Origin: a virus
Lineage: Duplodnaviria; Heunggongvirae; Uroviricota; Caudoviricetes
Direction: 5' to 3' (one strand)
IMG/VR virus record: IMGVR_UViG_2648501802_000002
Length of the DNA: 64,000 bases
In this document: positions 12,115 through 45,084 of the stretch, piece after piece
How the letters are laid out: the number at the start of each line of letters is the position of its first letter
Position numbering within the stretch: the stretch's first letter is position 1
Position numbers and translations under genes: made by a program
Notes under the pieces: generated by a model
What the model was told of the DNA's origin: nothing
The model's input: the letters and a program-made list of their open reading frames with translations, nothing else
Database searches by the model: none

Positions 12115-12638
12115 CGGTCAATGGGGCCATCGACTGGCTTAACCGCGCTTCTTATTTTTTCACCCTTGATCCATCCCCAGACAATATGCGGCGCGTTGGT
12201 CGTGGCCGCCGTCGCCGTGGTGTTTGTTATTGCATGGCACTACCCGATGTTAAAGAACGTGAAGTCAGAGATGGCGTTCTGTGCTTCCGTCGTGTGGCTG
12301 AACGCGGCATGGAGCCAAAAAATACGAATTCTCCCGAGTGGTGGGCGTGGCGCTGGTCCGCACATTTCGGCCTTTGCGAAGATGAGAATGAAATTGCCAG
12401 CGGCAATAGTGCATATGGTGCTCTGAACCTGGCTTTCCATATCGGATTCAAACATGTAGCTCTGGTGGGCGTTGACGCTACGCAAGAACCACGCGTTCAC
12501 TCCGGCGGCACGCCAAAAAATCTAAGTCACCTGCCTTTGTTATTCCAGTCTGCGCGTGAACAGATTGACGTTGTTTCATGCGGGAAAATGGGAGGTATTC
12601 CGCAGATGACTCTTAAAGAATGGCTGAAGAATACATGA
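12012..12638 (+). CDS. MptE-like (DUF115) protein, paralogue 2
   Basis: [11 protein letters not shown]...IIAVNGA motif, paralogous to the upstream gene. Confidence 0.4.
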
Positions 12639-13312
12639 TGGCACCCACAATTTATCACCGTATCGACGGTACCAAATACAGGAATGTCTGGGTTGTTGGT
12701 GATCTGCATGGTTGCTACACCAGACTGATGTCCGAACTCCATCGTGTGGATTTTGACCCGGCGCAGGATTTACTGATATCGGTCGGCGACCTTATCGATC
12801 GCGGTACTGAAAATGTCGAATGTCTGGAACTATTGCAGATGCCCTGGTTCAGGGCAGTGATGGGGAACCATGAGCGGTTGATGCTCGATGCGTTAAGTCC
12901 TGATGGCAACGTGAATAACTGGCTAATGAATGGCGGACAATGGTTCTTCATGCTGGACACTGATCAGGAAATATTAGCCTGGGCGCTGGTGGAGCTGGTA
13001 AAGCGTCTGCCCTATATCATTGAGTTGAACACCGGGCAAGAAACTATCGTTATAGCCCATGCCGACTATCCGGATAATGAATACCAATTCGGTAAGGAGG
13101 TGCCGCTTTTCAACGTTGTCTGGGCGCGCGAGCGTATCAGTGATTCGATGGATGATATTGGTGGCGAAATTTCGGGCGCAGATCGTTTTATCTTTGGTCA
13201 CACTCCGGTGAAAAACCCGAAGACATTCTGGAATCAGCAGTATATCGACACTGGTGCCGTATTTTGCGGAAACCTGACATTGATGAAAGTGAAAGGTGAT
13301 GGTGCAGCATGA
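12620..13312 (+). CDS. Ser/Thr protein phosphatase (lambda-phosphatase family)
   Basis: GDLHG, GDLIDRG and GNHE metallophosphatase motifs; corresponds to the P1 ppp position. Confidence 0.65.
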
Positions 13313-14011
13313 AGATTGCTTTAGTTTTTCGCTCTGGTGGTGACTATAACGCTTCCGATGTGCAGTGGCTGGTTAATCAACTGCCAAAAGGCTATGAAAT
13401 TATTTGCCTGACAGACCTGAAGCGTTTACATGTACCTGGCGTCAAAGTTGTCCCATTGATCAACCAGTGGCAAAAGTGCCGTGGCTGGTGGGCGAAAATA
13501 GAGTTGTTCCGACCGGATATAACCGATGATCTGTTCTATCTGGATTTGGACACGGTTATTGCCGGTGATATACGCCCAATCCTAGAGCATCCACCAACCA
13601 GCTTCACCATGCTTAGGGATTTTTACCATCCACAATATCGTGGCAGCGGTGCCCTGTGGATACCAAATAGTGTTAAAGCGCATATCTGGAGTTCATTCTG
13701 GCAAGATCCGGAAGGTTGGATTTCTCGTTGTGTCACTACTGAGTGCTGGGGGTGACCAGGGGTTCTTACGAAAGGTTATGGGCGATGATACACCAGCATT
13801 TCAGGATCTGTATCCAGGATGGTTTGTAAGTTACAAGGCCGATGTTGTGGAACCTGGTTCAAAATATGCGAGCGCGCGTTACTCCAGGGGGAATGGGGCA
13901 TTACCAAAGGACTGCCGAATAATCTTTTTCCACGGCAAACCGCGACCTCGCGAAGTGTCAGAGGATTGGCTTCCCCTTATCAGCTCGTTTTTTGAGCGAG
14001 AATCAGAATAA
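13309..14011 (+). pseudogene. glycosyltransferase-like gene split by a +1 frameshift at a G5 tract
   Basis: ORFs 13309..13755 and 13640..14011 overlap in different frames; G-run 13748-13752; removing one G by hand joins ...ECWG to DQGFLRKVMGDD; LDLDTVIAGD is DxD-like. Confidence 0.5.
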
Positions 14012-14032
14012 TATTGCTCTAATAATTCCATA

Positions 14033-14098
14033 TTTTTAAAACGTGATGTACACTCATCAAGTTTTTTATTAGAGCAATCTACAGGGTGCACTATGTGG
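14033..14098. promoter_or_regulatory. pair of C1-operator-like sites in inverted orientation
   Basis: 14033-14049 ATTGCTCTAATAATTCC and 14082-14098 TTTTTTATTAGAGCAAT, each with a perfect 13/14-nt core. Confidence 0.55.
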
Positions 14099-14311
14099 CC
14101 ATTCCGACGGAAATATCACTACTGGCTGATCGCCTTTGTTACGCCGACCGGCAGTATCAGGCATGTCATCACCAGGTATCGCAACAAGAGACTCACCTTA
14201 GCCAGAATTTTACAGGCTGCCATAGGTGAGGGATTGGATACAAATTGCGTAGTCCTTCCTCCTTCATACTTAGGAAAAATGACCGAAGCACAAGCTAATA
14301 CGGAACTTTGA
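14093..14311 (+). CDS. hypothetical small protein
   Basis: 72-aa ORF just after the operator pair; start uncertain. Confidence 0.25.
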   Translation: MWPFRRKYHYWLIAFVTPTGSIRHVITRYRNKRLTLARILQAAIGEGLDTNCVVLPPSYLGKMTEAQANTEL

Positions 14312-14312
14312 A

Positions 14313-15665
14313 ATGAGCACTTCAGCACAAAACCAATCAATCGAAAATGTATCTATCCCTGATGTCCTGAATGCCGGTATCCCGGCCATTATCCAGAACA
14401 TCCGGGCCGCGCAACGCCGCGTTAGTTGTGATGACCTCACAGCACGTTTTTTTGATAATGCGGTTCAGTCAGCGGAGATGCTTCACGCACAGCTTATTGA
14501 TGTTTATAACGCAGAAGCTGATAGCCATAACTCCCTGGTAGATGCAGCTGAAAATATGCAGTTGGATCTCGGTCTGAAGGGTAAAGAAATTGAAGAGCTT
14601 CAGCTGCAAATTGAACATTTGAAACGCCAGCAACAGGACGCGATCGACGATGCGACGCATGACGCCAACCAGCGTGCTGATAATGCCGAACGTATAAGCA
14701 TTGAGCTGGAAACAAAACTCAATGAAATGACCGCGATGGTTGAACTGCGGAACTCACAGATTTCAACGCTAAAATCTCAATATAAAGAGATCATGAAACT
14801 TGATCCTTTTAACCTTGAGAAACGCTATAACAAAGCTAAAAGCGAGCGACAAGAACTGCGTAAGCAGGTCGCCGACCTTAACCAACAGCTCAAAAAAACT
14901 ATTAAAGATGCAAGCGAAGCGCGCGTGGCATTTGCTAATAAAAAAGCAGAGGTTACCGCGCTGGTTAATGAGAATGCCAAATTTGCGACGCTCAAGAAGG
15001 AAATGTATGGCATTACTGAGCGCCGTTTCCCTGCAAGCAAACTTCATCCGACGTTAGGGCAAATCTCCTTCTTCCCGCGCCTCCTGGCTTATGGGATCTC
15101 ATCGCCTAAAGAGTTCAATAACGAGCGTCCTTATATCGTTTCTAAGCTGGACTTTGCTTATCAGTTCTGCTGCGACATGGGCTATGCCATTGATATCCGA
15201 ATCAACGAATGGTTGATGCCAAACTTCCAGCCGTTGGCAATTTTCCGCGAGTTCCAGCCGGAAGGTTGGGTAGAGTTCTTCCATGAATTGATCTGTAAAG
15301 AGATGGAAAGCCGCCGCCCGGAATTGGTCCGTCGAGTTGAGTGGGCGCAAGAGGTTATGTTGGCAGATGCAGAGCTGCCGTTCGAACCGGAATTCATTGA
15401 TGATCTGGCAACTAAAGGGTTGCATACCCTGTTTGATGTGGTTACCCGCCGTCATGAGCAGTTGGTTGTCGAATTGGGTTTAGAGGAAACAGCGGCAAGA
15501 AGACTTCTCGATGTTTGCTATGCACGTAGCGATGCATGGGAAAAAGAGAACGGCGGCACTATTTTACGTTCGCTGATAGTTACAGTGTCACTTTTAATGC
15601 TGGTGGAGTGCGCCCACCAGCATTTTTTTCGTCCAATGAGGAGGGCATTTGAGTATTTTCAATAA
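14313..15665 (+). CDS. coiled-coil hypothetical protein
   Basis: 450-aa ORF with a long Q/E/K-rich heptad-like stretch. Confidence 0.35.
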   Translation: MSTSAQNQSIENVSIPDVLNAGIPAIIQNIRAAQRRVSCDDLTARFFDNAVQSAEMLHAQLIDVYNAEADSHNSLVDAAENMQLDLGLKGKEIEELQLQIEHLKRQQQDAIDDATHDANQRADNAERISIELETKLNEMTAMVELRNSQISTLKSQYKEIMKLDPFNLEKRYNKAKSERQELRKQVADLNQQLKKTIKDASEARVAFANKKAEVTALVNENAKFATLKKEMYGITERRFPASKLHPTLGQISFFPRLLAYGISSPKEFNNERPYIVSKLDFAYQFCCDMGYAIDIRINEWLMPNFQPLAIFREFQPEGWVEFFHELICKEMESRRPELVRRVEWAQEVMLADAELPFEPEFIDDLATKGLHTLFDVVTRRHEQLVVELGLEETAARRLLDVCYARSDAWEKENGGTILRSLIVTVSLLMLVECAHQHFFRPMRRAFEYFQ

Positions 15666-16155
15666 ACACGCACACCAGGAACGTCCGTATATCGTCATAG
15701 TCGATATTGATGGAACAATATCAGAGGCAACTGAAGACAGACTGCATTTGCTTCCGCCACCAGGTAAAGGTGCATTAACAAAGGACTGGAACGAGTTTAA
15801 TCTCGCCTGTGACACTGATACTCCCATAACTCCAGTTATTGATATTGTGCGCCAGTTATTTAACGTTTACACGGTCTGGTTTGTAACCGGGCGCTGTGAG
15901 ATCGCAAGGGATAAAACACGAGCCTGGCTGCGGAAGTACGTAACAAACGGGGCTGAGCCTTTGCTATCTATGCGTCCTGCCACCGATGACAGAAGTGACG
16001 GCCCAGCAAAGATTGATCTCCTTAAGAAAATTGGTCTAAGTAAAATCGCGTTCGCGCTGGAAGATAAGATTGAAGTGGCGCGTGTTTTCAGGAGGCACGG
16101 CGTGCTTACGTTAATGGTCAGGGAGTATGAAAATGCGCTTCTTCATCAGCAATAA
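15649..16155 (+). CDS. HAD-like phosphatase (Pap position)
   Basis: 168-aa ORF with N-terminal IVIVDIDGTI (HAD motif I). Confidence 0.45.
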   Translation: MSIFNKHAHQERPYIVIVDIDGTISEATEDRLHLLPPPGKGALTKDWNEFNLACDTDTPITPVIDIVRQLFNVYTVWFVTGRCEIARDKTRAWLRKYVTNGAEPLLSMRPATDDRSDGPAKIDLLKKIGLSKIAFALEDKIEVARVFRRHGVLTLMVREYENALLHQQ

Positions 16156-16171
16156 TTACTCTAATAAATCT
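16155..16171 (+). promoter_or_regulatory. C1-operator-like site (15/17) overlapping a candidate -35
   Basis: ATTACTCTAATAAATCT followed by TTGATT. Confidence 0.45.
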
Positions 16172-16253
16172 TGATTTTTAAAACAGAGAAAGTGAAAATA
16201 AAAACTTGCCGCAAGGCGCGGCATGTATCCAATCAATCACAGGAGCTGAAAAT

Positions 16254-16340
16254 ATGAACACGGCATTCAAAATCATTATGGCCGCGATCTATTTCTGGCT
16301 GTTCTCTATCACTTTTGGCGGCATCGTCGCGCATGGGTAA
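16254..16340 (+). CDS. 28-aa hydrophobic peptide
   Basis: Hand translation MNTAFKIIMAAIYFWLFSITFGGIVAHG; AGGAG RBS 8 nt upstream of ATG. Confidence 0.4.
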   Translation: MNTAFKIIMAAIYFWLFSITFGGIVAHG

Positions 16341-16375
16341 GGGGAGTATATTAGCCATTTGGAACCCCACGGTCT

Positions 16376-16403
16376 CTTGCGGGTTTAATTAAGAACCCGC
16401 AAG
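16376..16403. repeat. perfect 10-bp hairpin between the small peptide ORF and the hsdR 3' end
   Basis: CTTGCGGGTT-TAATTAAG-AACCCGCAAG; A-run follows on the + strand, so not a canonical terminator. Confidence 0.5.
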
Positions 16404-16419
16404 AAAAACACGAATTGGG

Positions 16420-19400
16420 CTATATTTTTCCGCCTACGCCTTTAAACTTCTCAATAAACGAGACGATTTTCTGGAAAACTGCCTGTTTTTTCGTTTTATA
16501 TTGCGGATTTAACGGACTAAGTTTTGGTAATGTTTCGTTTAATTCTGTGCCATTTTCGGTGGCGTATTCGCGTTTTAAAGACGTGCGAATATAGCGTTTT
16601 GCTGCATCTTCATTGAGATTTTCTTCTTTTATCAATGCTTCTGCTTCACGTTGCTGTTCGCGTTGAGCAAACGTAAAGAATGCGTCAATGATGCTGGCTT
16701 TGTCCGGTAAATCATCCAGGTTCGTTTGCTGAATAAAATCGACCACCAGGCCCTCTTTAGCACGGTTCCCTAGGCTTGAACGAATTAAGCGTTTGACCTC
16801 TTCGATCATTTCGCCCTTGCCTTTATTTTGTCTGTTGTGTTCGAAAATAAGTCCAAGGATATAATCCAGGTTTATTTCCTGAGACTTCAGCAAATCGACC
16901 TCAAAAACTACGTCATCCCAGTCAGTGGTTGATTTCTCTTTTTTCTCAGCTTCTTTCTCACGGCGCTGCCAGTCGCGAATATCGTTATAGGCAGAACGAT
17001 AATCCTGAATCTTGCGATCAGCAGGGAGACGAATTGTTTGCAATTCAGCGAACTTTTCATCATCCACATAATGTTCTGCTTTGAATTTTTCTACCGCAAC
17101 AGGATCGCTAAGATCGATTTGTTGCAGGGCTTTTAGCGTGGCAAATTCATCATAGTTTTGCAGGATGTTCTCGGCACGCAGGTATTCGCCAAACAGTTTA
17201 ACGAAGTCTTTCTTCTCTTTTTCACTTTCAATACTGGTAGGGTCAGGGAACCGTTGTTCCAGTTCTGAAACTACTGTCATGAAGCCGCGTTTAGCTTCAC
17301 CTGTAGCAGCATCAGTAAAGCCTTCCATATACTCTGTATAACTCTTTTCTAACACCACATTTTTGGTGTTTTTGTCACCAAACAGCGTTATGGCATCAAT
17401 AGTTGAGCGTTCCAGATCCCGGAAAGTGACGATATTACCGAAGGTTTTAGTTGCATCATAAATACGGTTGGTGCGGGAAAATGCCTGCATCAGGCCGTGA
17501 AAACGCAAGTTTTTATCGACGAATAGCGTGTTCAATGTTGGAGCATCGAAGCCGGTTAAAAACATCCCCACGACAATTAGCAGATCGATATCCTGATTTT
17601 TAACCCGCTGGGCTAAATCACGATAGTAGTTCTGAAAACCGTTACTGTCGGTGCTAAAGTTAGTTTTAAAATGGCTGTTATATTCACGAATTGCAGCGTC
17701 CAGAAACTCTTTAGCACTGCTGTCCATTGCGCTGGTATCAAAAGTTTCATCGGAAATTTCACCAATGGCATTTTGTTCTTCATTGGCGGCAAAGGAGAAG
17801 ATTGTCGCAATACGCAGCGGTTTATAGGTAGCCGATTTATTAGCGGCTTCTTCTTGTAACCGTTTAAACGTCGCATAATAGGCTTTCGCGGCATCCACGC
17901 TGCTCACTGCCAACATAGCATTAAAACCTTTTGAGCCAGGGAAGGTACGGTGAGTTTTCTGGCGGAAATTATTCAGAATATATTGCGTGATTTCCTGAAT
18001 ACGCATAGGATGAAGAAACGCCTGCTGATTTTCAGCCGCACTTAGTTTTTTCTCGTCAGTTTCTGTCTCTAAAGACTTAAACTGTGGCCGCACATCGTTG
18101 TAGTCCACCTTGAATTTGAGCACTTTTTCGTCACGAATCGCATCGGTAATTACATACGAATGCAATTCACGACCAAATACGCTGGCGGTTGTTTCTGAGC
18201 CTAAGGCGTTTTCCGGGAAAATAGGGGTGCCGGTAAAACCAAACTGATAATAGCGTTTGAATTTCTTCTTCAGGTTTTTCTGCGCTTCTCCAAACTGGCT
18301 GCGGTGGCATTCATCAAATATGAACACTACTTGCTGATTATATACAGGCAGGTCGCTTTCTGCTTTCATCAGGTTATTGAGTTTCTGAATAGTAGTGACG
18401 ATAATTTTGTTATCGTCCTTATCCAGATTTCGTTTAAGGCCTGCGGTATTTTCCGAGCCGTTGACGCTGTCTGGCGAAAAACGCTGATATTCCTTCATGG
18501 TCTGGTAATCGAGGTCTTTTCTGTCGACCACAAAGAAGACTTTATCAATAAAGTCCAGCTCTGTTGCCAGACGCGCGGCTTTAAAGCTGGTAAGGGTTTT
18601 ACCAGAACCGGTAGTGTGCCAGATAAAGCCACCGCTTTCGGGGTTAGACCAGTTTTTCGCTTTATAGGAGCTGTTGATTTTCCATAAGATTCGTTCGGTG
18701 GCGGCAATCTGGTACGGTCGCATCACCAGTAGCGTCTGACTACTGTCAAAAACGCTGTAGTTCACCAGAACATTCAGCAGAGTATGTTTCTGGAAAAAGG
18801 TAGCGGTAAAGTCTTTGAGGTCTTTAATCAGCGTGTTGTCTGATTTCGCCCAGTTCATGGTGAAGTCAAAACTGTTTTTATCGCGCTTTGTCGTGTTGGC
18901 AAAATAACGGGTATCGGTGCCGTTAGAAATGACAAACAGTTGCAGATACTTAAACAGGGAATTTTCGCTGTTAAAACTCTCTTTACTGTAACGATGTATC
19001 TGGTTGAAAGCCTCACGAATCGCCACCCCGCGTTTTTTTAGTTCGATTTGCACCAGCGGTAAACCATTAACCAGGATCGTGACGTCATAACGGTTAGCAT
19101 GAGAACCCGTCTGTTCAAACTGCTGGATAATCTGCACCTTATTGCGCATGAGATTCTTTTTATCTATCAAATAGATGTTCTCAAGACGCTCGTCATCAAA
19201 AATAAAGTCGCAAATATAGTCGATATGGATTTTACGGGTCTTATCCAGAATGCCATCACTCGGGTTGTCCAGATACTGCTCCGTGAAACGCCGCCATTCG
19301 CTGTCATTAAACACCACACCATTGAGGTTCTGAAGCTGTTCCCGAACGTTGGCCAGCATCGCCGACTGTGATTTTACGGGTATAAATTCATAGCCCTGAT

Positions 19401-19536
19401 TTCGCAGGTCCTGAATCAGTTCCCGTTCCAGGTCCGATTCACTCTGATAGCTGTCGCCTGTTTGCTCAGCTTTGATGTACTTATCAAGAACGATAAAGTT
19501 ATTGGATTCAGCAATGGTGTGTGTCTGATGAGTCAT
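16420..19536 (-). CDS. hsdR: Type I restriction enzyme R subunit
   Basis: 1038-aa ORF with helicase motifs [12 protein letters not shown] and FDECHRSQ; downstream of hsdM-hsdS. Confidence 0.9.
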
Positions 19537-19658
19537 AGCGCATCCTTTGTGCCGTCTGGCAAGGGCCGGAAGGGGGTTAAGGGTGACTTCCAGCGTGTAA
19601 AAAAATAGCCTATATACTGACCGGGTGTTAAGGTGGCCCGGTCGGTAGCAATGGTCAA

Positions 19659-20870
19659 TTAATTACTGACAGTTTCAGGTTTCGGGAAACTGAACAGTAA
19701 ATCACGGTAGTACTCGTATTGTTTCTGGCGCAACTCGATTTCACGCGGGAGACCTTCGGTGATGGAGTTGGTCAGGGTGTCGAACTTATCGAGGATAAAG
19801 GCAATTTTTTGTTGCTCATCAATCGATGGTAAAGGAATAGATAAACCATCAATGTTATTTGCTTTAAGATAACCTTGCCCTGAATTGTTTTTTACTGACT
19901 TAAAGTAAAATTTCATTCTTGGTGAGTCGAAGAAATGCAGAAAATATCTAGGGTGAAGTAATTCCTCATTCAACCTGATTAGGTACATGTTTTGACCGTA
20001 AAAATCAGGATCGAGACATTTTACTCGAGCAATCTCACCAATAGTACCAATCATGCTTATAAGAAAGTCACCTTTCAAGATCGGTCTATTTTTGGAGATG
20101 CTCAAAAAATCGTCCCGGGAAATATGCTTAACTCTTTCAAAATCGATGTTCCCACCACTAATATTCTTTGAAGTGACATATGGAATTTCACCATTATCAT
20201 CAAACTTCGGAGTTGCGGGCATAATCCAAAATTTATCTACTAGCACCTCCTCCAAAGTCTTCCACTCAACCTCACCCTCTTTAAAACTCAACAACTGGTC
20301 GCGATAATAGTTGTACTGTTTTTTACGCATGTTAAGCTCAGCGGTAAGCTCAGCGGTAAGTGCAGTAAATTTATCCAGAATCCGAACGATTTCAGACTGG
20401 ATGGCAAGGGATTTTTCCGGATTATCCGGGCAGGGGATTGGGATTTTTTTTTGAGAATAATTACTAATCCATTGGCGTTTATGGTCTCCCTCTGCGAATT
20501 CACTTGGTAATGTATTGAGCCAATAGTAAACATATTTCAGTAAGGTTTTATTATTATCACATGATGTAACCATTTTCATGGCCGATGATTTTGCCTTAAA
20601 GTCAAAATCCACCCATTTATTAGCGGTGGTGAAATCATCAAAAATTATTACAGGTGCCTTTGATGCCTGGTAAATACCATGAGTCTCATTTGTGTATCCA
20701 AGAATAAATGTTTTTCCGGCAGTAAGAACCGGTATGGTATATGTGTCGTGATAATCTTTTGCTTTTACCAAATACTTTGTTGGCTGTTCATATTTGGTTA
20801 TTTCCCCCAATGGCAACCACTCAACTTCAACCCCATCCAGCAATTTTTCCAGATAACTCAACTCGCTCAT
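19659..20870 (-). CDS. hsdS: Type I restriction-modification S subunit, EcoR124-like central region
   Basis: 403-aa ORF; central ...[23 protein letters not shown]; 4-nt overlap with hsdM. Confidence 0.85.
20335..20358 (-). repeat. 12-bp tandem repeat (2 copies) encoding TAEL-TAEL in hsdS
   Basis: AGCTCAGCGGTA twice on the + strand, then a degenerate third unit. Confidence 0.85.
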
Positions 20871-22429
20871 TTCTGCACCTCGCAGCCTTCAATTTCAGCC
20901 ACAATCGCATCAATATCTTTACGCAACTGGTCGATTTTGCTGACCGTGGTTTTCAGCTCAGCATTTAGCTCAGCAATATCGATAGTTTCGCGGTTATCTT
21001 TCACTTCTACATAGCTGCTCACTGACAGGTTATAGTCATTCGCGACAACGGCCTCAAACGCGACAGATTTTGCCAGATGGGCAACATCTTCCTTGCTGGA
21101 AAATACCTGCATAATTTTTTCGATATGGGCATCGGTCAGGATGTTGTTGTTAGTCTCTTTTTTGAACAGTTCGCTGGCGTCAATAAACTGAACTTTGGTA
21201 TCCGTTTTATGTTTAGACAGCACCAGAATATTTACGGCAATGGTGGTGCCAAAGAACAGGTTCGGTGCCAGTGAAATCACGGTTTCGACATAGTTATTGT
21301 CAACCAGATACTGACGGATTTTCTGCTCCGCTCCGCCACGGTAAAAAATGCCCGGGAAGCAGACAATCGCAGCACGACCTTTGGCAGAAAGATAGTTCAG
21401 CGCATGTAATACAAACGCAAAGTCAGCTTTGGATTTGGGGGCCAGAACGCCAGCCGGGGCAAAACGTTCATCGTTAATCAGCGTCGGGTCATCGCTGCCA
21501 ATCCATTTCACCGAATACGGCGGGTTAGAAACGATGGCATCAAACGGTTTTTCATCTCTGAAGTGCGGCTCAGTCAGTGTATTACCCAGCTTGATATCAA
21601 ACTTGTCGTAGTTGATGTTGTGCAAAAACATGTTCATACGCGCCAGGTTATAGGTCGTATGGTTGATCTCCTGACCAAAAAAGCCTTCTTCGATGATATG
21701 GTCATCAAACTGTTTTTTAGCCTGCAACAACAGCGAACCGGAACCTGCTGCCGGGTCGTAGATTTTGTTAACGTGGGTCTGGCCGTGCATTGCCAGTTGT
21801 GCAATCAGCTTAGAGACGTGCTGCGGTGTAAAGAACTCGCCGCCGGACTTACCGGCATTCGCCGCATAGTTAGAAATCAGGAACTCATAGGCATCACCGA
21901 ACAGGTCAATCTGATGTTCGTTGAAGTCACCAAGGTTTAACCCTTCAACCCCTTTCAGAACCGCAGCCAGGCGGGCATTTTTATCCTTAACGGTGTTACC
22001 CAGGCGGTTACTGGTGGTATCGAAATCAGCAAACAAACCTTTGATGTCAGCTTCTGAAGGATAACCGTAAGCAGAACTTTCGATAGCAACGAAGATGCTG
22101 TTTAAATCTGCATTCAGTCTGTCATTGGTATTTGCTTTCGCCGCTACGTTGCAGAAAAGCTGACTTGGGTAGATGAAGTAGCCTTTGGTTTTGATGGCAT
22201 CGTCTTTAATGTCATCAGTAATTACGCTGTCATCCAGTTTCGCATAACAGATACTGCCATCACCGGCTTCAATATAGCTGGAAAAATTTTCGCTGATAAA
22301 ACGGTAGAAAAGTGCGCCCAGAACGTATTGCTTAAAATCCCATCCATCGACCGAACCCCTGACATCGTTAGCAATTTGCCAGATTTGACGATGAAGCTCT
22401 GCACGTTGTTGAATACTTGTCATTTTCAT
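20867..22429 (-). CDS. hsdM: Type I restriction-modification M subunit (N6-adenine methyltransferase)
   Basis: 520-aa ORF with NPPY motif in [14 protein letters not shown]. Confidence 0.9.
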
Positions 22430-22574
22430 CCACTTATTTCAGGCTTATGTAATTGGATGTGATTCTACAACAACTTGGTGGCTTTAACAGTTCGGACATT
22501 AGGCTATGAATGACCTGCCTAGAGTTTTGTTAAGCCGCAAAGTGCTGGCGCTTTATGCCTGTGAAGTTTATAAT

Positions 22575-22597
22575 TGTGTACACATAACGAGTACACG
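22575..22597 (+). promoter_or_regulatory. phd-doc promoter/operator palindromes
   Basis: TGTGTACACA perfect palindrome at 22575-22584 and GAGTACACG half-site just upstream of phd. Confidence 0.55.
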
Positions 22598-22605
22598 AGG
22601 TGTTT

Positions 22606-22827
22606 ATGCAATCCATTAACTTCCGTACCGCGCGCGGCAACCTTTCTGAAGTGCTCAACAATGTTGAGGCCGGGGAAGAGGTTGAAATCACCCGCAGAGG
22701 CCGTGAGCCAGCAGTAATTGTCAGCAAGGCTACTTTCGAAGCCTACAAAAAAGCGGCGCTGGATGCTGAATTTGCATCCCTGTTTGACACCCTGGACTCC
22801 ACCAACAAGGAACTGGTTAACCGATAA
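22606..22827 (+). CDS. phd: antitoxin Phd
   Basis: 73-aa product [20 protein letters not shown]... recognised as P1 Phd; the track ORF starts at an upstream GTG (22600). Confidence 0.9.
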
Positions 22828-23207
22828 TGAGGCATATATCACCGGAAGAACTTATTGCGCTTCATGATGCGAATATAAGCCGCTACGGCGGCCTGCCTGG
22901 CATGTCAGATCCGGGCAGGGCAGAGGCCATTATCGGGAGAGTTCAGGCCAGAGTTGCCTACGAAGAGATCACCGACCTTTTCGAAGTCTCCGCCACCTAC
23001 CTGGTGGCTACAGCGAGAGGGCATATATTCAATGATGCCAATAAGCGTACCGCGCTAAACAGTGCGCTGCTATTTCTACGCCGTAACGGGGTGCAGGTAT
23101 TTGATTCACCTGAACTGGCAGACCTTACCGTAGGCGCTGCGACTGGCGAGATATCTGTATCTTCTGTCGCCGACTCGTTACGTAGATTGTATGGTTCTGC
23201 GGAGTAG
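22827..23207 (+). CDS. doc: toxin Doc (Fic-fold kinase)
   Basis: 126-aa product [22 protein letters not shown]... recognised as P1 Doc; ATGA overlap with phd. Confidence 0.9.
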
Positions 23208-23211
23208 ATTA

Positions 23212-23391
23212 ATGGCACGCAAATACGACAAATTGTCCCGTGAAGCGTTAAAGATGCTTCTTGATGGCGTGAGTCGCCGCAAGGTAAAGCAATACCTGGT
23301 TGGTAAGCAAATTGGAGTCAGGACCGCTATTGCTGTGTTATGCCGTCAGGAAATGGTTGTGCTTAAACAGAGAATGCCGGGCAGCAGATAA
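23212..23391 (+). CDS. small protein downstream of doc (PdcA position)
   Basis: Internal ATG 5 nt after the doc stop; MARKYDKLSREALKMLLDG... Confidence 0.35.
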   Translation: MARKYDKLSREALKMLLDGVSRRKVKQYLVGKQIGVRTAIAVLCRQEMVVLKQRMPGSR

Positions 23392-23418
23392 AGCCCAATC
23401 AGTGATTAAAGGTGTGAT

Positions 23419-24462
23419 GTGAAAGCCATAATTACTCCCTTTGTACAGAAAGAGCTTGGCCTCGCCACGTTCAAAGTGGATCAGGAGGTCAGAAAGCTGG
23501 TGGAGGCTGGCCGTAAATTTATTATGGAGCCGGTGCCGCGTGAGTTAATCGAGCACATGGAAGACGGCCTCGTTGTTACTGAGCAAACCATGGCAACAAA
23601 TGAGGCGTTGCAGCCGTTTTTTAACAGCGATGAACTGTTTCGCCGTATTGGTGGAATTGACGCGCTGGTTGCGTGGTTGCGTAGGAAAGAGGGTCAATGC
23701 CAGGCCGCAGATCGTAGTTGGTGTGACAACCATATTGTCCACGCTGAACGAGACAATAGCGCGGTGTTGTTGTGCTGGCATCACGATAACCATTACCGGA
23801 TGCGTGGTTTTAATGAGCTGAAAGAAACGCTGCACAATAATCGCGTTAACTGGATACTGGATGTCGCCCGTCAGGAAATGGGCCTTTCAAATAGCCATGA
23901 TTTAAGTATTCAGGAGCTGTGCTGGTGGGCTTTCATGCGCAACATGATGCACCTGATGCCGGAAGAAGTCTGCCGCATATCAATAAATAAGATGAAGGCT
24001 ACTCCGCAGGATAGTGGACCTCTGAAAGAGGCGGATATTCGCCCGTATGACGATCGCGCTACAGCATATGTTCAGATGATGGAAGAACGCGCCGCGCCGA
24101 TGCGTGCAAAAGTATGCCCTGTGGATGTTGACTCCGACCCTAGCATGGCGCATTTCAAAATACCAAAACTTCAATCGCTAAAATTGCCTGAGTACATGGA
24201 TTTTGTGGCTTCCCGTCCATGCTGTGGCTGTGGAGCTGCGGGAGCTGGCGCTCACATTACGCCTTATATCGTTCGTCATAGTCGATTATGCGCGCATGAC
24301 ATTTATGCTATTCCTCTGTGCCAGTCATGCCAGCGTGATATTGAGCGTGACCGCGATAATTGGGAGAAGACGCACGGTAGGCTGGCGATGCATCAACGAT
24401 TGTTCTTTGATTACGCGCTTGGAGTCGGCGCTATCACAAGTCATTCGTCGAGCGTTAGATAA
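23419..24462 (+). CDS. hypothetical Cys/His-rich protein (PdcB position)
   Basis: 347-aa ORF with several CxxC/H clusters. Confidence 0.35.
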
Positions 24463-24463
24463 A

Positions 24464-24480
24464 ATTGCTCTAATGCATTG
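24464..24480 (+). promoter_or_regulatory. C1-operator-like site (14/17) upstream of lpa
   Basis: ATTGCTCTAATGCATTG. Confidence 0.45.
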
Positions 24481-24550
24481 CTATTTCTTTAATCGATGGT
24501 ATTATATTCGACGTTGATTAGTTGACATGGGCTAATCAGTAGGTGACAGG

Positions 24551-25003
24551 ATGTTACTTAACTGGCAGGGACGCCACTTCATGGAAATAAATCACTCACG
24601 AATAACATCGTACGAGATTGCGGATTACATGATCCGCACTAAATCTCTTCTATCAGCGAAAGAACTCGCAGCAATTCTTGAAAAGGAATACCCGCATCTG
24701 GATGTCGATAAGCGCGATGTTTATCTGCGCTTAAAGGCTATCGCTGTGTCTAAGTATTCGTCTGTTTTGATTGATGACAGTACACGCCCACGTAGATTTC
24801 AGATCCACTCTCTGAATCCTGAATTCTTTCGCCGCAGCCGCGCTCCGCGCCGGTTTGATGAAAAACTCCAGAACGAACTCTATATGACGCAGGACGAAAA
24901 GGAACGCCGGGAGCACCAGCCTTGGGTAATGGCGCGTCAACTTTTCAATAAGGTGGCCCGTCAGCACCGTCATTACGGTAATGCCACATCCGCACGTATC
25001 TGA
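24551..25003 (+). CDS. lpa: late promoter activator-like protein
   Basis: 150-aa ORF immediately upstream of pacA with an operator-like site in front, as for P1 lpa. Confidence 0.5.
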   Translation: MLLNWQGRHFMEINHSRITSYEIADYMIRTKSLLSAKELAAILEKEYPHLDVDKRDVYLRLKAIAVSKYSSVLIDDSTRPRRFQIHSLNPEFFRRSRAPRRFDEKLQNELYMTQDEKERREHQPWVMARQLFNKVARQHRHYGNATSARI

Positions 25004-25088
25004 TTGATTGCTTGCCCGTTCCGGGCCTTTTGACATGTGACTTTCGTTACCCTCGCGTCAAAAAGAGTTTTTACGAAAGGAAGCATAA

Positions 25089-26282
25089 GTGACCTGGGAC
25101 GATCACAAGAAGAATTTTGCTCGCCTGGCGCGAGATGGTGGTTACACCATCGCACAGTATGCCGCCGAGTTTAATCTTAACCCTAATACCGCACGTCGTT
25201 ATCTCCGTGCCTTCAAAGAAGACACCAGGACTGCGGACAGCCGCAAGCCAAATAAGCCAGTCAGGAAGCCACTAAAAGGCATGATCATTGATCACTCTAA
25301 TGATCAACATGCAGGTGATCATATTGCGGCTGAAATAGCGGAAAAACAGAGAGTTAATGCCGTTGTCAGTGCCGCAGTCGAGAATGCGAAGCGCCAAAAT
25401 AAGCGCATAAATGATCGTTCAGATGATCATGACGTGATCACCCGCGCCCACCGGACCTTACGTGATCGCCTGGAACGCGACACCCTGGATGATGATGGTG
25501 AACGCTTTGAATTCGAAGCTGGCGATTACCTGATAGATAACGTTGAAGCGCGGAAGGCCGCGCGCGCTATGTTGCGTCGGTCCGGGGCCGATGTTCTGGA
25601 AACCACTCTTCTTGAAAAGTCTCTTTCTCATCTCCTTATGCTGGAGAACGCCAGGGATACGTGTATTCGTCTGGTGCAGGAAATGCGCGATCAGCAAAAA
25701 GACGATGATGAAGGGACTCCGCCTGAATATCGTATCGCGAGCATGCTAAACAGCTGTTCCGCGCAGATAAGCAGCCTGATCAACACCATTTACAGCATCC
25801 GGAATAACTATCGAAAAGAAAGCCGGGAGGCGGAAAAGCACGCTTTATCTATGGGGCAAGCTGGCATTGTTAAGCTGGCATACGAACGAAAGCGTGAAAA
25901 TAACTGGTCAGTGCTGGAAGCAGCTGAATTCATCGAGGCGCATGGCGGAAAAGTGCCGCCCCTGATGCTGGAGCAAATCAAAGCCGATCTGCGTGCTCCT
26001 AAGACCAATACCGATGATGAGGAAAGGCAAACAGCCGTCGGTGGCCCTTCTCTTGAAGATCTGGACAAAGTTGCGCGAGAACGGGCTGCCAACCGCCGCG
26101 CCGATGCCGCATTGTGGATTGAGCAGCGTAGGGAAGAAATCGCCGATATCGTTGATACAGGCGGTTATGGAGATGTTGATACTGAAGGTGTATCAAACGA
26201 CCCATGGCTGGAACAAGACCTGGACGAAGACGAGGAGGAAGACGAAGAAGTTACCCGCAAGCTATACGGGGATGATGATTAA
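25089..26282 (+). CDS. pacA: terminase small/pac-recognition subunit PacA
   Basis: 397-aa ORF containing the pac hexamer clusters; followed by pacB with overlapping stop/start. Confidence 0.75.
25282..25440 (+). other. pac site (packaging initiation): 4 + 3 TGATCA/G hexamers
   Basis: TGATCA at 25282, 25289, 25301, 25316; TGATCG/TGATCA at 25412, 25424, 25435; each holds a GATC. Confidence 0.8.
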
Positions 26283-27766
26283 TGGCCAGAAGTTGCGTAA
26301 CGGATCCACGTTGGCGCGAGCTGGTGGCGCTATATCGTTATGACTGGATTGCTGCCGCTGATGTTTTGTTCGGCAAAACACCTACCTGGCAGCAGGATCT
26401 GATTATTGAGTCTGTGCAGGAACAGGGTAGCAAGACATCTGTTTCGTCTGGTCACGGTACCGGGAAATCAGACATGACTTCTATCATGATCATGTTGTTC
26501 ATAATCATGTATCCCGGTGCCCGCGCCATTATCGTTGCGAACAAAATTCAGCAGGTAATGACCGGTATATTCAAGTACATCAAGATAAACTGGGCTACTG
26601 CCACCAGCCGTTTTCCATGGCTTGCTGATTATTTTGTTCTGACAGAAACCGCTTTCTATGAGGTTACTGGTAAAGGTGTATGGACTGTAGTACCGAAGGG
26701 CTTTCGTCTGGGAAGTGAAGAAGCTCTCGCCGGTGAACACGCAGATCATCTTCTGTATATTATCGATGAAGCCTCCGGTGTCAGTGATAGAGCTTTCGGT
26801 ATCATCACTGGTGCTCTTACCGGACAGGATAACCGCATCTTATTACTGTCACAGCCTACACGCCCAAGCGGCTATTTCTACGATACTCACCATAAACTGG
26901 CCAAGCGTCCTGGTAACCCTGATGGCGTTTATACGGCGATCACGCTTAACAGTGAGGAATCACCGCTGGTAACGCCAGCATTTATCAAAATGAAGCTGGC
27001 GGAGTACGGCGGGCGTGATAACCCTATGTACATGATTAAGGTACGCGGACTATTCCCTAAATCACAGGATGGCTTCCTTCTTGGACGTGATGAGGTTGAA
27101 CGTGCGACGCGGCGGAAAGTCAAGATTGCCAAAGGATGGGGCTGGCTTGCATGTGTGGACGTTGCTGGTGGTACAGGACGGGATAAGTCCGTTATCAATA
27201 TCATGATGGTGTCCGGCCAGCGAAATAAACGCCGTGTAATCAACTATCGAATGCTGGAATACACAGACGTTACAGAAACGCAGCTTGCCGCCAAAATTTT
27301 CGCAGAATGTAATCCTGAGCGATTCCCAAATATCACCATAGCGATAGACGGCGATGGGCTGGGTAAAGCAACGGCGGATCTGATGTACGAGTATTATGGT
27401 ATTACCGTACAGCGCATACGCTGGGGTAAAAAGATGCATAGCCGTGAAGATAAGAGCCTGTACTTTGATAAACGTGCTTATGCCAACGTTCAAGCCGCAG
27501 AGGCCGTAAAATCTGGTCGTATGAGACTGGATAAGGGTAATGAAACTATTGAGGAAGCGTCGAAAATCCCTGTAGGGATTAACTCCGCAGGTCAATGGAA
27601 GGTGATGAGTAAGGAGGATATGAAGAAAAAACTCAACCTGCACTCACCAGACCATTGGGATACATATTGTTTCGCTATGCTGGCGGATTATGTTCCCCAG
27701 GACGAAGTGCTTAGCGTCGAAGACGAAGCGCAGGTTGATGAAGCTCTGGCATGGCTTAATGAATGA
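26282..27766 (+). CDS. pacB: terminase large subunit PacB
   Basis: 494-aa ORF with Walker-A-like GHGTGKS. Confidence 0.75.
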
Positions 27767-28125: not shown

Positions 28126-28347
28126 GTGGCTACTATCCCTACCCCAGCTCATCCTGAATTTATCTGGCGCTTTTACTCCTGCCAAAAACGTCACTATCAC
28201 TTCGTTATTGCACCGACAGAAGATGAGGCACGTTCTCAGCTTCCGGATGCTCCCTGTATTTTCTCTGCCCGCTTTTCTACCGATTCGCGCAATTCTCTCA
28301 GTTACTGGTGCCTCCCTGTTAACGCTTCTGCTCAGGAGGGACTATGA
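28126..28347 (+). CDS. small protein upstream of and overlapping the antirepressor start (Icd-like position)
   Basis: 73-aa ORF with GTG start and AAAGGAGG RBS. Confidence 0.35.
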   Translation: MATIPTPAHPEFIWRFYSCQKRHYHFVIAPTEDEARSQLPDAPCIFSARFSTDSRNSLSYWCLPVNASAQEGL

Positions 28348-29446
28348 GAACGTCATTAGTCACCCGTGAAGAGATGATCGAGGCAATTGAACAGCACACT
28401 GCCTGTATCAGTACCAGGGATATACCGGGCGTTATTGCCAACTACTTCATGATCACCAAACAACTTTACCGGAGAAAGGACAAATACGCGGTTCACCGCA
28501 TTCTGCTAACCGATATCCGTGAATACCTGCTCGAACAGGGTCATCTGAATTACGCAACCGTCGCAGCCGAAGCACGCAAGGAGGCACACAGAATGAAAGC
28601 AACTAACGTTAAATCAGAAAAAATTTATGCACCTTCAGTTCAGGAATCGGAACTGGTGGTTGTTCAGAATCAGCCGGATGAAATTCCCGTTCTGGAATGG
28701 CAGGGAGTACGTGTCGTGACAACCGAAACTCTTGCTAGAGGGTATGGTGTCGATGAAGCCAATATTCGCAACAATTTGTCTCGCAACCTTGACCGCTTTG
28801 AAGAAGGTAAGCATTACTTTCTTCTAACTGGTTTAAAATTAAGAGAATTTAAGAACAGAGTAACCGGAAGTTACTCTGTTGGTAAGAACGCCAGAAGCCT
28901 TACACTCTGGACAGAGCGCGGCGCTGCACGCATGTCTAAGATCGTGGACACAAATGAAGCATGGGCATTCTTTGAAAAACTGGAAGACAGCTACTTCCGG
29001 CAAAAAGAACAGCAACCGGTTGCAATCCCCCAGACGCTTCCAGAAGCTCTGCGCCTGGCTGCCGAACTGGCTGAACAAAAGAACAGAAAGCCCACCAGCT
29101 AAATCAGCAGCTGGTGGCCGCCGCTCCTAAAGTCGATTTTGCCGACCGGGTATCAGTAGCTAAAGGGATCCTGATTGGGAATTTTGCAAAGGTTGTTGGA
29201 CTTAAGCAAAACGCGCTGTTTGCCTGGTTACGGGAGAACGGCATCCTGATAGCGTCCGGTGGACGTAAAAATGTGCCGTTCCAGCAGTACATCAATGCGG
29301 GGTATTTCACGGTGAAAGAAGTGGTGCTGGATGATGAAGATGGCTACCAGATACGGTTGACGCCTCAATTAACGGGTAAAGGCCAGCAGTGGTTGACGCG
29401 TAAACTGCTCGATGCTGGCTTGTTAAAACCGGTGGCGGCTGAATAA
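28344..29446 (+). pseudogene. antirepressor (N-terminal domain + KilA-C-like domain) split by a frameshift
   Basis: ORFs 28344..29102 and 29114..29446 in different frames; one extra A in the A4 run at 29077-29080 fuses them by hand into about 367 aa. Confidence 0.5.
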
Positions 29447-32775: not shown

Positions 32776-33765
32776 TCATTTTTCAGTTTCTTTACCTGCC
32801 GGAATATTGCCTTCCGGCGTTCCGTTAAATGTTTTTCGCCATTCACTGGGACTGACTCCCATCCGCTGCCGGAATATCTGCCGGAAAGTAATGGTGGACT
32901 GAAAGCCTGCCAGTTCGGCAACCCGCTCCACTGCAATATCTGTACTTTCCAGCAGTTCCTGACTCCGCCGGAGACGCTCTGTGGTGATCCACTCCCAGAC
33001 CGTCATTCCTGTGGCCGAATGAAAATGGCGTGTAAGCGTTCTTCGGCTCATGGAGGCTAAATGGGCCAGAGTGTCAATATCATGTGGTAATCCCAGATTT
33101 GCGGACAGGTATTCCAGCAGCTGGTTTATGCGGTTATCGGACGTACTTTTGGGAATAAGCAGTTGCCGGTACTGTGCCTGTCCGCCTTCCCGGTAAGGAG
33201 GAGCAACCATCCGGCGGGCTATTTGATTAGCCGTATATCTGCCCAGGCGTTGCCGGATCACATGGAGACAACAGTCCAGTGCTGCGGCTGTACCGGCTGA
33301 GGTGATAATCCGCTCGTCCTCAACATAAAGCACGTTCACGTCCAGATGAACCGCCGGGAAAAGCATCTGGAAATCCCGTTCAGCCTCCCAGTGCGTGGCC
33401 GCCCGTTTACCATCCAGCAGACCGGTGTAAGCCAGAACAAAACTCCCCAGGCACAGGCCCACCACCTGAGCTCCATTTTTCCAGGCTGCAACCAGGGCAC
33501 TGAGCAGAGTTTCAGAAGGCCTTTCATGGATGTGTTTCCAGAAAGGAATAATAACGATATCGGCCTCTGCCAGTGCATCAAGCCCGTATTCTGCCCTCAT
33601 CGCCGTACCTTCAGCAGACCAGATAAGCCCGGGCTCTTCCGCACATACCCGGCGGCTGAAGAGGGCCTTCCCTTCCAGTATCTCCCCGAACAGGATTAAT
33701 GGAACGGAGACATGAAATGTACTGAACCCTTCGGTGATCACTATAGCGACAGTGATGGTGGACAT
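32776..33765 (-). CDS. GlxA-like transcriptional regulator (DJ-1/PfpI domain + AraC HTH)
   Basis: 329-aa ORF; N-terminal DJ-1-like region and C-terminal AraC-type HTH. Confidence 0.6.
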   Translation of the reverse strand: MSTITVAIVITEGFSTFHVSVPLILFGEILEGKALFSRRVCAEEPGLIWSAEGTAMRAEYGLDALAEADIVIIPFWKHIHERPSETLLSALVAAWKNGAQVVGLCLGSFVLAYTGLLDGKRAATHWEAERDFQMLFPAVHLDVNVLYVEDERIITSAGTAAALDCCLHVIRQRLGRYTANQIARRMVAPPYREGGQAQYRQLLIPKSTSDNRINQLLEYLSANLGLPHDIDTLAHLASMSRRTLTRHFHSATGMTVWEWITTERLRRSQELLESTDIAVERVAELAGFQSTITFRQIFRQRMGVSPSEWRKTFNGTPEGNIPAGKETEK

Positions 33766-38467: not shown

Positions 38468-41400
38468 TTATGCGTATTGTTGGATGACGGCCAGAACGTC
38501 CGCCACGTTGTGTTTTGTCTCGATAATCCACCAGTTACCCGGGAAATCGCTGTTCTTCGCCTTCGCTGGCAGCCAGCGAGCGCCGAATTTCGCCTTGATT
38601 GCGTCTTTCGCACGGAAAAGAACGCCTTTCATGCCTGAGGCTTCCTGAAGCCCAAATACCTCGCCAGCGGCGAATTTTGGTGCGTACATCATCTTCAGGT
38701 CGGCGGTGGATACGCGATAATTCAGACCTAGAGACTGAGCTATGCTGGTGGCATCACCCTGTATTGATGATAACTCTTCTTGTTTCTCGTTTCTGGCGGC
38801 AATCTCTTCCTCCGTGATGTTGCCAAGGGCCAGGTTTATCCGATCAGCGTCGGCCTGTTTCTCTTCATCGGTGCGCCCGGCAAGAACCGTGTTAATTCTC
38901 TGCAATATCTCCACATGATTCTTGCGCATGCTGAGCAATTCCGGCGTAACCTCGTTAAGATCCACCAGCCCAAGGATGGCAAGGTCGGAAAACATTGATA
39001 CCAGGTTGTAGGTCATGCGATAGCTGAGTTGACCATAGGCTGATGGCAACTTCACCGCATCCATTTGATAGGCATCCATAAATTTAGAGCCGTCGTTTAC
39101 GACATCCGCTATTGCAGGTGTGATTTTCCCTGTGGTGGCGGCCTCCCTGATTGCTGTTACCCACGATTGAGTCAGCGCGGCGACTGCATGATTCAGATTG
39201 GCTTCCCGTTCTGCTGCGATGCGCGCGCTTGCTGCGTCCATTGCCTGCTTGATCTCGGCTTTATTGCTGTAAATGCCAATGGTGCCAAACTGTGCTGTGG
39301 TGATCTCATAATCTGACGCCCGGAACTCATTGGTACCGAAAATGGCATTGGTGACTTCAAGTTCAGAATCCCCGTTACGAGTAGCCCCCTGGCTTGTTTT
39401 TTCCGGCATTCTGGCGATCGCATCCGCTATTTTCTCCTGAATTGCTTCAGGGGATAGCGTATCTCCGTATGACGCGATTACATCGCCATAATTGGAGCCA
39501 AACAATTCAACCAGGAATGTTTCTGCCGAACGGATCTGGCGGTTATTCCCTTCCGACATCATACCAAGCACCCATTTTGCAATTGACGACTTCAGCGCGA
39601 CGTCACGGCGATCCGGGTAAACCGCATGCTTCAGTGGGTCCGTATAGGTACCAACAAAATCAATGCTATAGCCTGACTCTGTAGTCTGAACGCCGTATGA
39701 GTCAGTGATTTTGATCATGCCGCGCTGCTGGAAACGGTAGAAATCGTCACAGGAAATGATGTCGTTAATCCCGGCGATGGAGACGCCGCCACTGATTTTC
39801 TGCATAACAGCATCTTCATCGGGAGTTACATCAACCTGTTTATCCAGCGTCTTCACATCCCAGTTACCCGATTTGGTACCTTTGAAGGTAAAGATAATCT
39901 CCACGTCTGCGCGCAGGCTGTCGAAGTCCAGCGACTTAATGCGAACGATATCACCGGCACAATCGTAGTATTGGCCTACACGCCATGAGCGATCGCCGAT
40001 AATAAGGAACTCACTCGCATGGTTAACCAGGTCAGGATCAACATCCAGAATGCCTTTATTTATTGCATCCTCCACCAGCGGGCGCAGGCGTTTGATATCC
40101 GTCGCGGCCTTCTGAGTACGGTTCAATAATTTCTCATAGCGGGAGATGGCTTGAGAGATATTAGCCTTGCGCTGAATGGCGCTTTTCAACGACGCGCGAT
40201 ACTGTGCTAACAACGTACGGTCTGTGTGATGGACGCTACCCCAGCGGGCTTTCCAGTCTGCGTTATCAGCTGCTTTGGCCATTACCGCCTGTTTGAATTT
40301 GGCGACGTCGGCGGTGGTCTTTTCAAGTTCCGCTTTGCTTCGCTCTAATTCAGCGGTAAGCACCTCCACATCCTCACCAGCTGCGTGCTGCGCCTTGATG
40401 TAGTTCTGAAGGTCGATAGTAGCCTGTTCTTTCTGGCGAGCGCGTTGCGCGGCTTTCGCCTTATCCATTTGAACCTGCATCATTGCCAGACGTTCGCCAT
40501 CATCCTTAGCGGTATACATCTGCATTTCGATCATATCGTTGGCGTCGGCGTTCTCCATTTCTGACTTATCTGAACGGAGGATATCGGAGATCCAACCTGC
40601 TTTACGCTTCAGCGTCTTCAGTCGGTATTCATCGAAAGAACCCTTGCCGCAGTAGTAGTGAACGCGAACGCTTGCACGGTTGGAACCAACTCGGGCACCG
40701 CGACCGTTACGCTGTGCGATACTGGCTGGTGTCCATGGCAACGTCAGATGATGGATGTCAGTCGTTCCTCGATGCAGGTTGATACCCACCTCTGCCTTTT
40801 TGTTGCAGATGATGATCGGAGTCCGGCCCTCCTGGAAGTCGGCTGCAATCTTTTCCAGACCGCCCAACGACATTTCATTTTGCTGCGCGATATAGGCGTC
40901 ATACAGAGCTATTTGCTCGTTGTATTTCGCTATCTGTGCATCTGTTGGTTCATCCGGTAACTCTTTCGGCGGTTTAACCGCTTTCAGTTTCTTACCGGTT
41001 TTACCTGCCTCGGCAACCGTCTGAGCATTCAGGATCCCCACCTTTGAAGGTTCAAGGTTAAGAGCATTGCAGATAATGCGCTTGAGCTTCTGGTGTTGCG
41101 TTTTTTTCATCGGTGAAGATGATTTGCTTACCTTCTGGGAAAAACTCCTTCAGCGTGGCAATCAGCTTCGCGTATTTGGGCGTAACGGGGTGAGTTACGG
41201 TCTGTTCGTCAATGCCAAACTTGGCCAGGCGCTTATTCACTTCCTGCTCAAATGCTTCCGGTACCTGCAACTGAATAAACTCGCCCTTATCTATCAGGGA
41301 GTATTGCGATTGCTGCGTGATTGAATCATCACTGTCGTCGTCTTCGCTGGTGGCTTGTTTGGGCAAACTGTCCGCCAGCTGCTGCACCGCATCGGCGTAC

Positions 41401-43353: not shown

Positions 43354-45084
<1,731 letters not shown>

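Follow-up and report, generated by a model that had tools for sequence, protein, structure and literature searches.

The window (the whole stretch of DNA analysed here, 64,000 nucleotides long) carries on its minus strand a three-gene Type IC restriction-modification (RM) cassette embedded in phage P1-like sequence. The cassette and its immediate surroundings have the following features.

15649-16155, plus strand: pap-like phosphatase gene (Pfam HAD_PNKP), the final P1 gene ahead of the cassette, inside the 98.5% P1 match that ends at 16344
16345-22529, minus strand: Type IC hsd cassette hsdM-hsdS-hsdR, 6.2 kb, between the P1 junctions found by blastn
16420-19536, minus strand: hsdR, 1038 aa, intact; residues 1-1038 align with 1-1038 of the EcoR124 HsdR chain 2w00_A (2289 bits)
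19537-19658, minus strand: hsdS-hsdR intergenic gap, 122 bp, with a promoter-like site at 19631-19602
19659-20870, minus strand: hsdS, 403 aa, intact; Pfam Methylase_S, E=3.8e-30
20867-22429, minus strand: hsdM, 520 aa, intact; residues 1-520 align with 1-520 of the EcoR124 HsdM chain 7bst_D (1147 bits)
22606-22827 (phd) and 22827-23207 (doc), plus strand: P1 addiction module (Pfam PhdYeFM_antitox and Fic/DOC), collinear with P1

The gene layout is that of Type IC systems: hsdM and hsdS form one unit, the stop codon of the former overlapping the start codon of the latter by 4 nt (ATGA at 20870-20867), and hsdR lies downstream and apart, with all three genes on the minus strand. Families of this kind are defined by subunit similarity and by complementation, and the subunits show Type IC similarity as well; HsdR and HsdM align end to end with their EcoR124 counterparts, Pfam domains HSDR_N, SWI2_SNF2/ResIII, T1R_D3-like and EcoR124_C were found in HsdR, and HsdM_N and N6_Mtase in HsdM. 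In the PDB comparison HsdS matched the EcoR124 HsdS chain 7bst_A, also over its full length (E=9e-176). The protein is identical to a public database entry (P0001; AHM43577.1 and others) whose annotation reads only 'restriction endonuclease subunit S'.

The hsdR gene of EcoR124 has a separate promoter. The promoter-like site in the intergenic gap of the window (TTAACA-18-TATTTT, 9/12 consensus matches) would fit the same arrangement here; this is weak, only suggestive evidence, since a promoter consensus scan of the hsd region gave 13 sites, not above the 12.3 expected from shuffles.

The P1-like backbone

The locus is surrounded by a collinear backbone of high identity to P1, as expected of a P1-like element (Punavirus). 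Phage P1 covers 98% of window positions 1-16000 at 98.3% identity, with 99.0% identity of the same stretch to SJ46; blastn against P1 aligned window 14001-16344 with P1 82140-84482 (98.5%) and window 22530-27764 with P1 87970-93204 (93%). As the insert junctions map to window 16344 (P1 84482) and window 22530 (P1 87970), the cassette at 16345-22529 replaces the P1 genes from pmgT to humD, a segment spanning P1 84483-87969 (pmgT, pmgU, pmgV, upfM-O, hot, lxr, humD). The phd-doc module stands directly upstream of hsdM and is divergent from it, and c1, darA, ddrB and tail-fibre genes are found in the remainder of the window. The first-pass annotation, made from the letters of this DNA, had placed hsdS on a mobile P1-like backbone next to phd-doc, and both the blastn match and the gene order agree with it.

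An association of such flanks with Type IC hsd loci is on record. According to the P1 GenBank record, P1 84263-84482 is identical to the downstream flank of the hsd loci of EcoDXXI and R124/3, and P1 87969-88647 to the upstream flank of that of EcoDXXI. It was Tyndall et al. (1997, Mol Microbiol 23:729; in the reference list of PMC12707154) who published the association.

Several other features of the backbone were noted. Between pacB and c1 there is a 1.7-kb segment missing from P1 (27767-29478), with genes for an ORF6N-domain protein (28344-29102) and for a protein with a KilAC/ANT antirepressor domain (29114-29446); together they resemble an antirepressor module, either split or made of two parts, beside the c1 immunity region. 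After c1, an AraC-family regulator with a DJ-1/PfpI domain (32776-33765) does not seem to belong with the classic P1 genes and is possibly cargo. The darB-like anti-restriction gene (38468-43287, minus strand) is seen as three successive ORFs of 880, 199 and 521 aa (helicase part, N6-methylase part), beside which a 573-aa ORF without a Pfam hit runs on the plus strand (43363-45084). The product of P1 darB we take to be 2255 aa long; darB may be fragmented in the window. Both darA (54239-56158) and ddrB (50877-53864) are intact, and one element carries a Type I restriction system together with the Dar anti-Type-I system. A 5.0-Mb chromosome record of E. coli NCTC11129 (L005; NZ_LR134222.1, 4598102-4617313), with a near-identical hsdS allele, also contains this hsd cassette between P1 flanks (pap-like, phd-doc, lpa, pacA), as if a P1-like element had integrated there or the assembly had been mis-joined.

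The repeat tract and the domains of HsdS

HsdS has the layout of Type IC specificity subunits, in which N-terminal, central and distal conserved regions flank two variable target recognition domains (TRDs). Its parts, all on the minus strand, are listed below.

20421-20870, minus strand: N-terminal conserved stretch and TRD1 (HsdS residues 1-150), 148/150 identical to EcoR124 HsdS (P0093)
20259-20420, minus strand: central conserved helix D1 (HsdS residues 151-204), 54/54 identical to EcoR124
20333-20360, minus strand: 12-bp tandem repeat, 2.3 copies, with coding units ACCGCTGAGCTT x2 translated as TAELTAEL
19836-20258, minus strand: TRD2, the C-terminal recognition domain (HsdS residues 205-345), 19% identity to EcoR124 TRD2
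19659-19835, minus strand: distal conserved helix D2 (HsdS residues 346-403 and the stop codon), 52/58 identical to EcoR124

Read directly from the sequence, AGCTCAGCGGTA is present twice, back to back and perfect (20335-20346 and 20347-20358). Tandem Repeats Finder reported an array at 20333-20360 with period 12, 2.3 copies, 100% matches and score 56, and in translation TAELTAEL makes up HsdS residues 172-179, with codons running from 20357 down to 20334. The claim of two perfect tandem copies at 20335-20358, coding for TAELTAEL in the central conserved region, was thus exact to the base. Both perfect 12-bp TAEL units, two in tandem being the minimum for a spacer switch, lie inside the central conserved helix.

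In a scan of the 64-kb window that covered periods of 4-60 and required 16 or more matched bases, the hsdS repeat was the sole perfect tandem repeat; no comparable repeat appeared in 200 first-order Markov simulations of the window. An assembly artefact or a chance duplication is hardly credible as the origin of the tract, given the outcome of the simulations and given that EcoR124 carries the identical repeat at the homologous position, as do hundreds of independent records; we rejected this reading.

The central helix has 13 residues between ILDKF and RKKQY, and the distal helix has 17 between ILDKF and RQKQY. A third TAEL unit would make the two stretches equal, which fits a review remark that three units seem to be the 'optimum' number.

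With TRD1 and both helices EcoR124-like and TRD2 unrelated, HsdS is a mosaic, and we regard it as a natural domain-shuffled allele. TRD1 differs from that of EcoR124 by D106N; TRD2 is identical in the HsdS of plasmid pKTa005_6. In the best 120 database hits the window TRD2 was combined with at least 25 different TRD1s, and in the best 120 database relatives the GAA-type TRD1 was combined with at least 12 different TRD2s. Such pairings are consistent with the known recombination of recognition domains via conserved helices, and the window TRD2 appears, from these comparisons, to be a different module out of a shared enterobacterial Type IC pool. The plasmid hsdS of L010, annotated as 'EcoprrI subunit S', has neither of the two recognition domains of the window. 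The first-pass annotation had called this hsdS EcoR124-type and had proposed aligning its recognition domains with those of EcoR124; the alignment puts the gene inside the EcoR124 family, with the refinement, discussed below, that its target would not be the EcoR124I site.

Among the relatives, three natural 407-aa HsdS proteins (P0020, P0022, P0023) have 2 TAEL units and carry the EcoR124 GAA domain twice, at the N-terminal and at the C-terminal position. In this they resemble, as natural forms, the engineered symmetric enzymes EcoR124I-NT and HsdS(delta50), for which the target is GAA N7 TTC.

One could ask if the locus is an inactive relic, or a methyltransferase-only system, in which the shuffled HsdS or the D106N substitution, for example, has abolished function and the repeat is without consequence. 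Our view of the locus is that of its sequence, and decayed relatives do exist, with hsdS truncated by IS elements (L007, L008) or fragmented (L004); in the window, however, all three ORFs are full length and without frameshifts, HsdR and HsdM match the EcoR124 chains end to end, the allele is conserved at 98-100% identity on >200 contigs from E. coli, Salmonella and Cronobacter, and shuffling of TRDs is known to yield active Type IC enzymes (PMC3874165). We consider a relic very improbable, and infer that the enzyme is active. The locus is, with high probability, a complete and apparently functional Type IC RM system of the EcoR124 family with a spacer-setting TAEL repeat, on a P1-like phage-plasmid.

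Unit number in nature

The rule that connects the repeat with the spacer was taken from reviews. EcoR124I has two TAEL units and recognizes GAA N6 RTCG, EcoR124II has three and recognizes GAA N7 RTCG (PMC3874165, PMC10644984), and the change from one to the other arises through unequal crossing-over at the 12-bp repeat (PMC3874165), just as the first-pass annotation had stated. EcoDXXI (TCA N7 RTTC) and EcoprrI (CCA N7 RTGC) have three units each (PMC3874165); the methyl-adenine interval is 7 for EcoR124I and 8 for EcoR124II, EcoDXXI and EcoprrI (PMC3874165). EcoR124/EcoDXXI hybrids with 2 or 3 units act exactly as the rule predicts (PMC3874165, PMC12707154), and in a 2023 study deletion of one unit turned EcoR124II into EcoR124I, with the expected change in phage restriction (PMC10644984).

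In the mechanism proposed, the two recognition domains of HsdS are spaced by an antiparallel coiled coil formed by the central and the distal conserved helices. By the rules for EcoR124I/II and EcoDXXI, two TAEL units in the central helix would set the methylated adenines 7 nt apart and three units 8 nt apart; if slippage during replication or unequal crossing-over added or removed one unit, the spacer would change by 1 bp and a new specificity would result.

We surveyed unit number with a synthetic 176-nt probe of the central region with three units, run against E. coli complete genomes and PLSDB plasmids. Unit number was read as query span minus record span, and 60 evenly spread rows were sampled per collection.

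E. coli complete genomes: 1362 matching records (1271/5426 genomes); of 60 sampled, 2 units in 31, 3 units in 22, 4 units in 3, 5 units in 1, unclear in 3
PLSDB plasmids: 802 matching records; of 60 sampled, 2 units in 31, 3 units in 27, 4 units in 1, 5 units in 0, unclear in 1

About half of the sampled enterobacterial Type IC hsdS genes thus have two copies and ∼40% have three; forms with 1, 4 and 5 copies also occur. Unit counts were checked by sequence at six loci: three in L006 and L010, four in L008, L014 and L015, and five in L007.

Alleles alike but for unit number were found both among relatives and for the window allele. In the first case, P0024 (2 units, 403 aa) is 403/403 identical to the 3-unit, 407-aa HsdS of pKTa005_6 apart from one TAEL; at the DNA level, two metagenomic contigs encoding P0024 show, across 8851 bp, a single mismatch and a single 12-bp gap relative to pKTa005_6. 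This allele shares its TRD2 with the window, while the TRD1s are 77% identical. In the second case, a 1-unit form of the window allele (P0016, from sequencing run ERR10982859) was found in the same phd-doc/hsdM/hsdS/hsdR setting, and in a 6.6-kb alignment of its locus with the window the 12-bp unit is the only gap. A second allele has a 1-unit form as well (P0057, compared with the 2-unit P0034).

The window allele is represented in databases by ∼16 protein variants, the commonest (P0002) on 158 contigs, with two units each except for the one 1-copy form. By exact look-up, synthetic 3-unit versions of its three commonest variants were absent from a collection of 15 billion proteins; this absence is weak evidence, since the pKTa005_6 HsdS, our positive control, was also absent.

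Two 12-bp units provide only 24-28 bp of homology, so a low event rate is to be expected; and as nearly all database copies of the window allele are two-unit, with the 3-copy form not found, switching must be rare. The tract changes in nature, yet rarely, and it would therefore be an evolutionary diversifier, not a rapid phase-variation switch.

A stricter alternative is that the coiled-coil spacer of this allele simply contains the two TAEL units as a fixed structural element, which sets the spacing and provides no switch on a biologically relevant timescale. While this would agree with the window allele being two-unit in every database copy but one and not found with three, and with a tract as short as 2 units, unlike true phase-variable repeats, it is at odds with near-isogenic plasmids that differ by a single unit, with the 1-copy form of the window allele itself, with an IS-disrupted chromosomal allele that has 4 units in one strain and 5 in another, and with a population in which 2- and 3-unit forms are roughly equal in number. 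Experiments have, moreover, shown EcoR124 and EcoR124/3 to switch from one to the other, according to literature as cited in PMC3874165. A fixed spacer thus seems improbable, and we favour infrequent switching. The first-pass annotation had described the system as poised for the same specificity switching as the EcoR124 pair; P0024/pKTa005_6 and P0016 support this, with the refinement that switching is infrequent, and the count of copies across relatives that it had proposed did reveal variation, mostly 2 or 3 units, with 1, 4 and 5 rarer.

High unit numbers were seen in both intact and disrupted genes. An intact full-length Type IC hsdS with four TAEL units is present in the K. pneumoniae plasmid P_KP31122023_1 (L014 3876-5114; NZ_OY978172.1) and in the E. 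coli P1-like pDAM_1 (L015 3954-5120), the latter in phd-doc surroundings of P1 type, where an IS5 separates hsdM from phd. Two E. coli chromosomes share one hsdS allele with 5 TAEL units in ETEC1717 (L007 663-1544) and 4 in PSJ-12 (L008 663-1517); the gene is cut by an IS element, IS3 or IS5 depending on the strain, and both copies adjoin the same HsdR (WP_021571035.1). The TAEL tract appears to go on expanding or contracting in this pseudogene.

Intact 4-unit genes (P_KP31122023_1, pDAM_1) and 1-unit forms (P0016, P0057) beside 2- and 3-unit populations are the basis for a more tentative idea, that in nature the TAEL tract acts as more than a two-state device; we regard this as possible, though rather doubtful. 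If enzymes with 1 and 4 units were active, with methyl-adenine intervals of 6 and 9, each TRD pair, including the GAA domain and TRD2 of the window, would reach four specificities, not two, and the defence repertoire on phage-plasmids would be larger.

Predicted target and known systems

In EcoR124 HsdS the N-terminal domain reads GAA and the C-terminal domain reads RTCG (Loenen et al. review, Table 2, PMC3874165). As TRD1 of the window is of EcoR124 type, this assignment leads us to infer that the window HsdS keeps the GAA reader and a spacer of EcoR124I length, with a different second reader. With TRD2 unlike that of EcoR124, the target would not be GAA N6 RTCG; judging from the domain comparison, it should consist of GAA, a spacer and a half-site other than RTCG.

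The constant quantity in these enzymes is the interval between the methylated adenines, which is 7 in two-unit and 8 in three-unit enzymes (Table 1, PMC3874165). Since this interval is invariant, 'N6' is particular to the RTCG half-site, and for the two-unit window allele an adenine-to-adenine interval of 7 nt is the safe prediction. From the same table, a bipartite asymmetric Type IC target is predicted, in which both strands carry m6A at a distance of 7 or 8 nt.

Several routes to the second half-site were followed. A protein search with TRD2 only returned just 89 short or fragmentary S proteins with uninformative names, and in the PDB TRD2 had only a distant match, the S subunit 1yf2 of M. 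jannaschii. Literature on GAA-N6 motifs gave only EcoR124I/II, KpnAI and unrelated organisms, with no half-site for TRD2. A chromosomal relative sharing the window TRD2 (L004) is without prrC and has a fragmented hsdS. For annotation this means that hsdS should not carry the label EcoR124I, because of the different second half-site; its methylation motif is partly predictable, as GAA and a 7-nt adenine-to-adenine interval.

Type IC membership, the TAEL spacer rule, domain shuffling and the P1 flanks have all been described before, and the exact protein is already public. What the locus shows is two known routes of diversification of Type IC systems on P1-like phage-plasmids, shuffling of TRDs and change of repeat number. 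Our small survey (∼50:40 for 2 vs 3 units, rare forms with 1, 4 and 5, and a near-isogenic pair) gives a population-level view of a mechanism first described in the 1980s, and leaves the understanding of the TAEL mechanism unchanged.

The window shares with P1, P7, SJ46, RCS47 and pMCR_SCKP-LL83 a backbone with 93-99% identity to P1, in which pap borders the locus at one end and phd-doc-pdcAB-lpa-pacAB-c1 at the other. The genes hsdM-hsdS-hsdR are arranged as in the window in further P1/P7-like elements, among them pMCR_SCKP-LL83 and vB_EcoM-673R5, whereas P1 itself has pmgT to humD in place of the hsd cassette.

Of the restriction systems, EcoR124I/II (EcoR124/3; from plasmid R124, the Type IC prototype) has in common with the window the gene order, HsdR, HsdM, TRD1 (GAA) and both helices; EcoR124I has 2 TAEL units, as the window does, and the EcoR124 repeat unit is the same 12-bp DNA, with accgctgagctt contained in the mutagenesis primers of PMC10644984. 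The two differ in TRD2 (19% identity), in the second half-site (RTCG in EcoR124, and by prediction not in the window) and in location, EcoR124 residing on R124 and the window system on a P1-like phage-plasmid. EcoDXXI and EcoprrI belong to the same Type IC family, with three TAEL units in contrast to two in the window; the P1 GenBank annotation indicates that the EcoDXXI hsd locus, too, is flanked by this P1-derived sequence. In the hybrids EcoRD2, EcoRD3, EcoDR2 and EcoDR3 (Gubler et al. 1992), N- and C-terminal domains taken from different enzymes were combined with either 2 or 3 TAEL units, giving predictable sites (Table 2, PMC3874165). The window allele is a natural counterpart of these engineered EcoRD/EcoDR enzymes.
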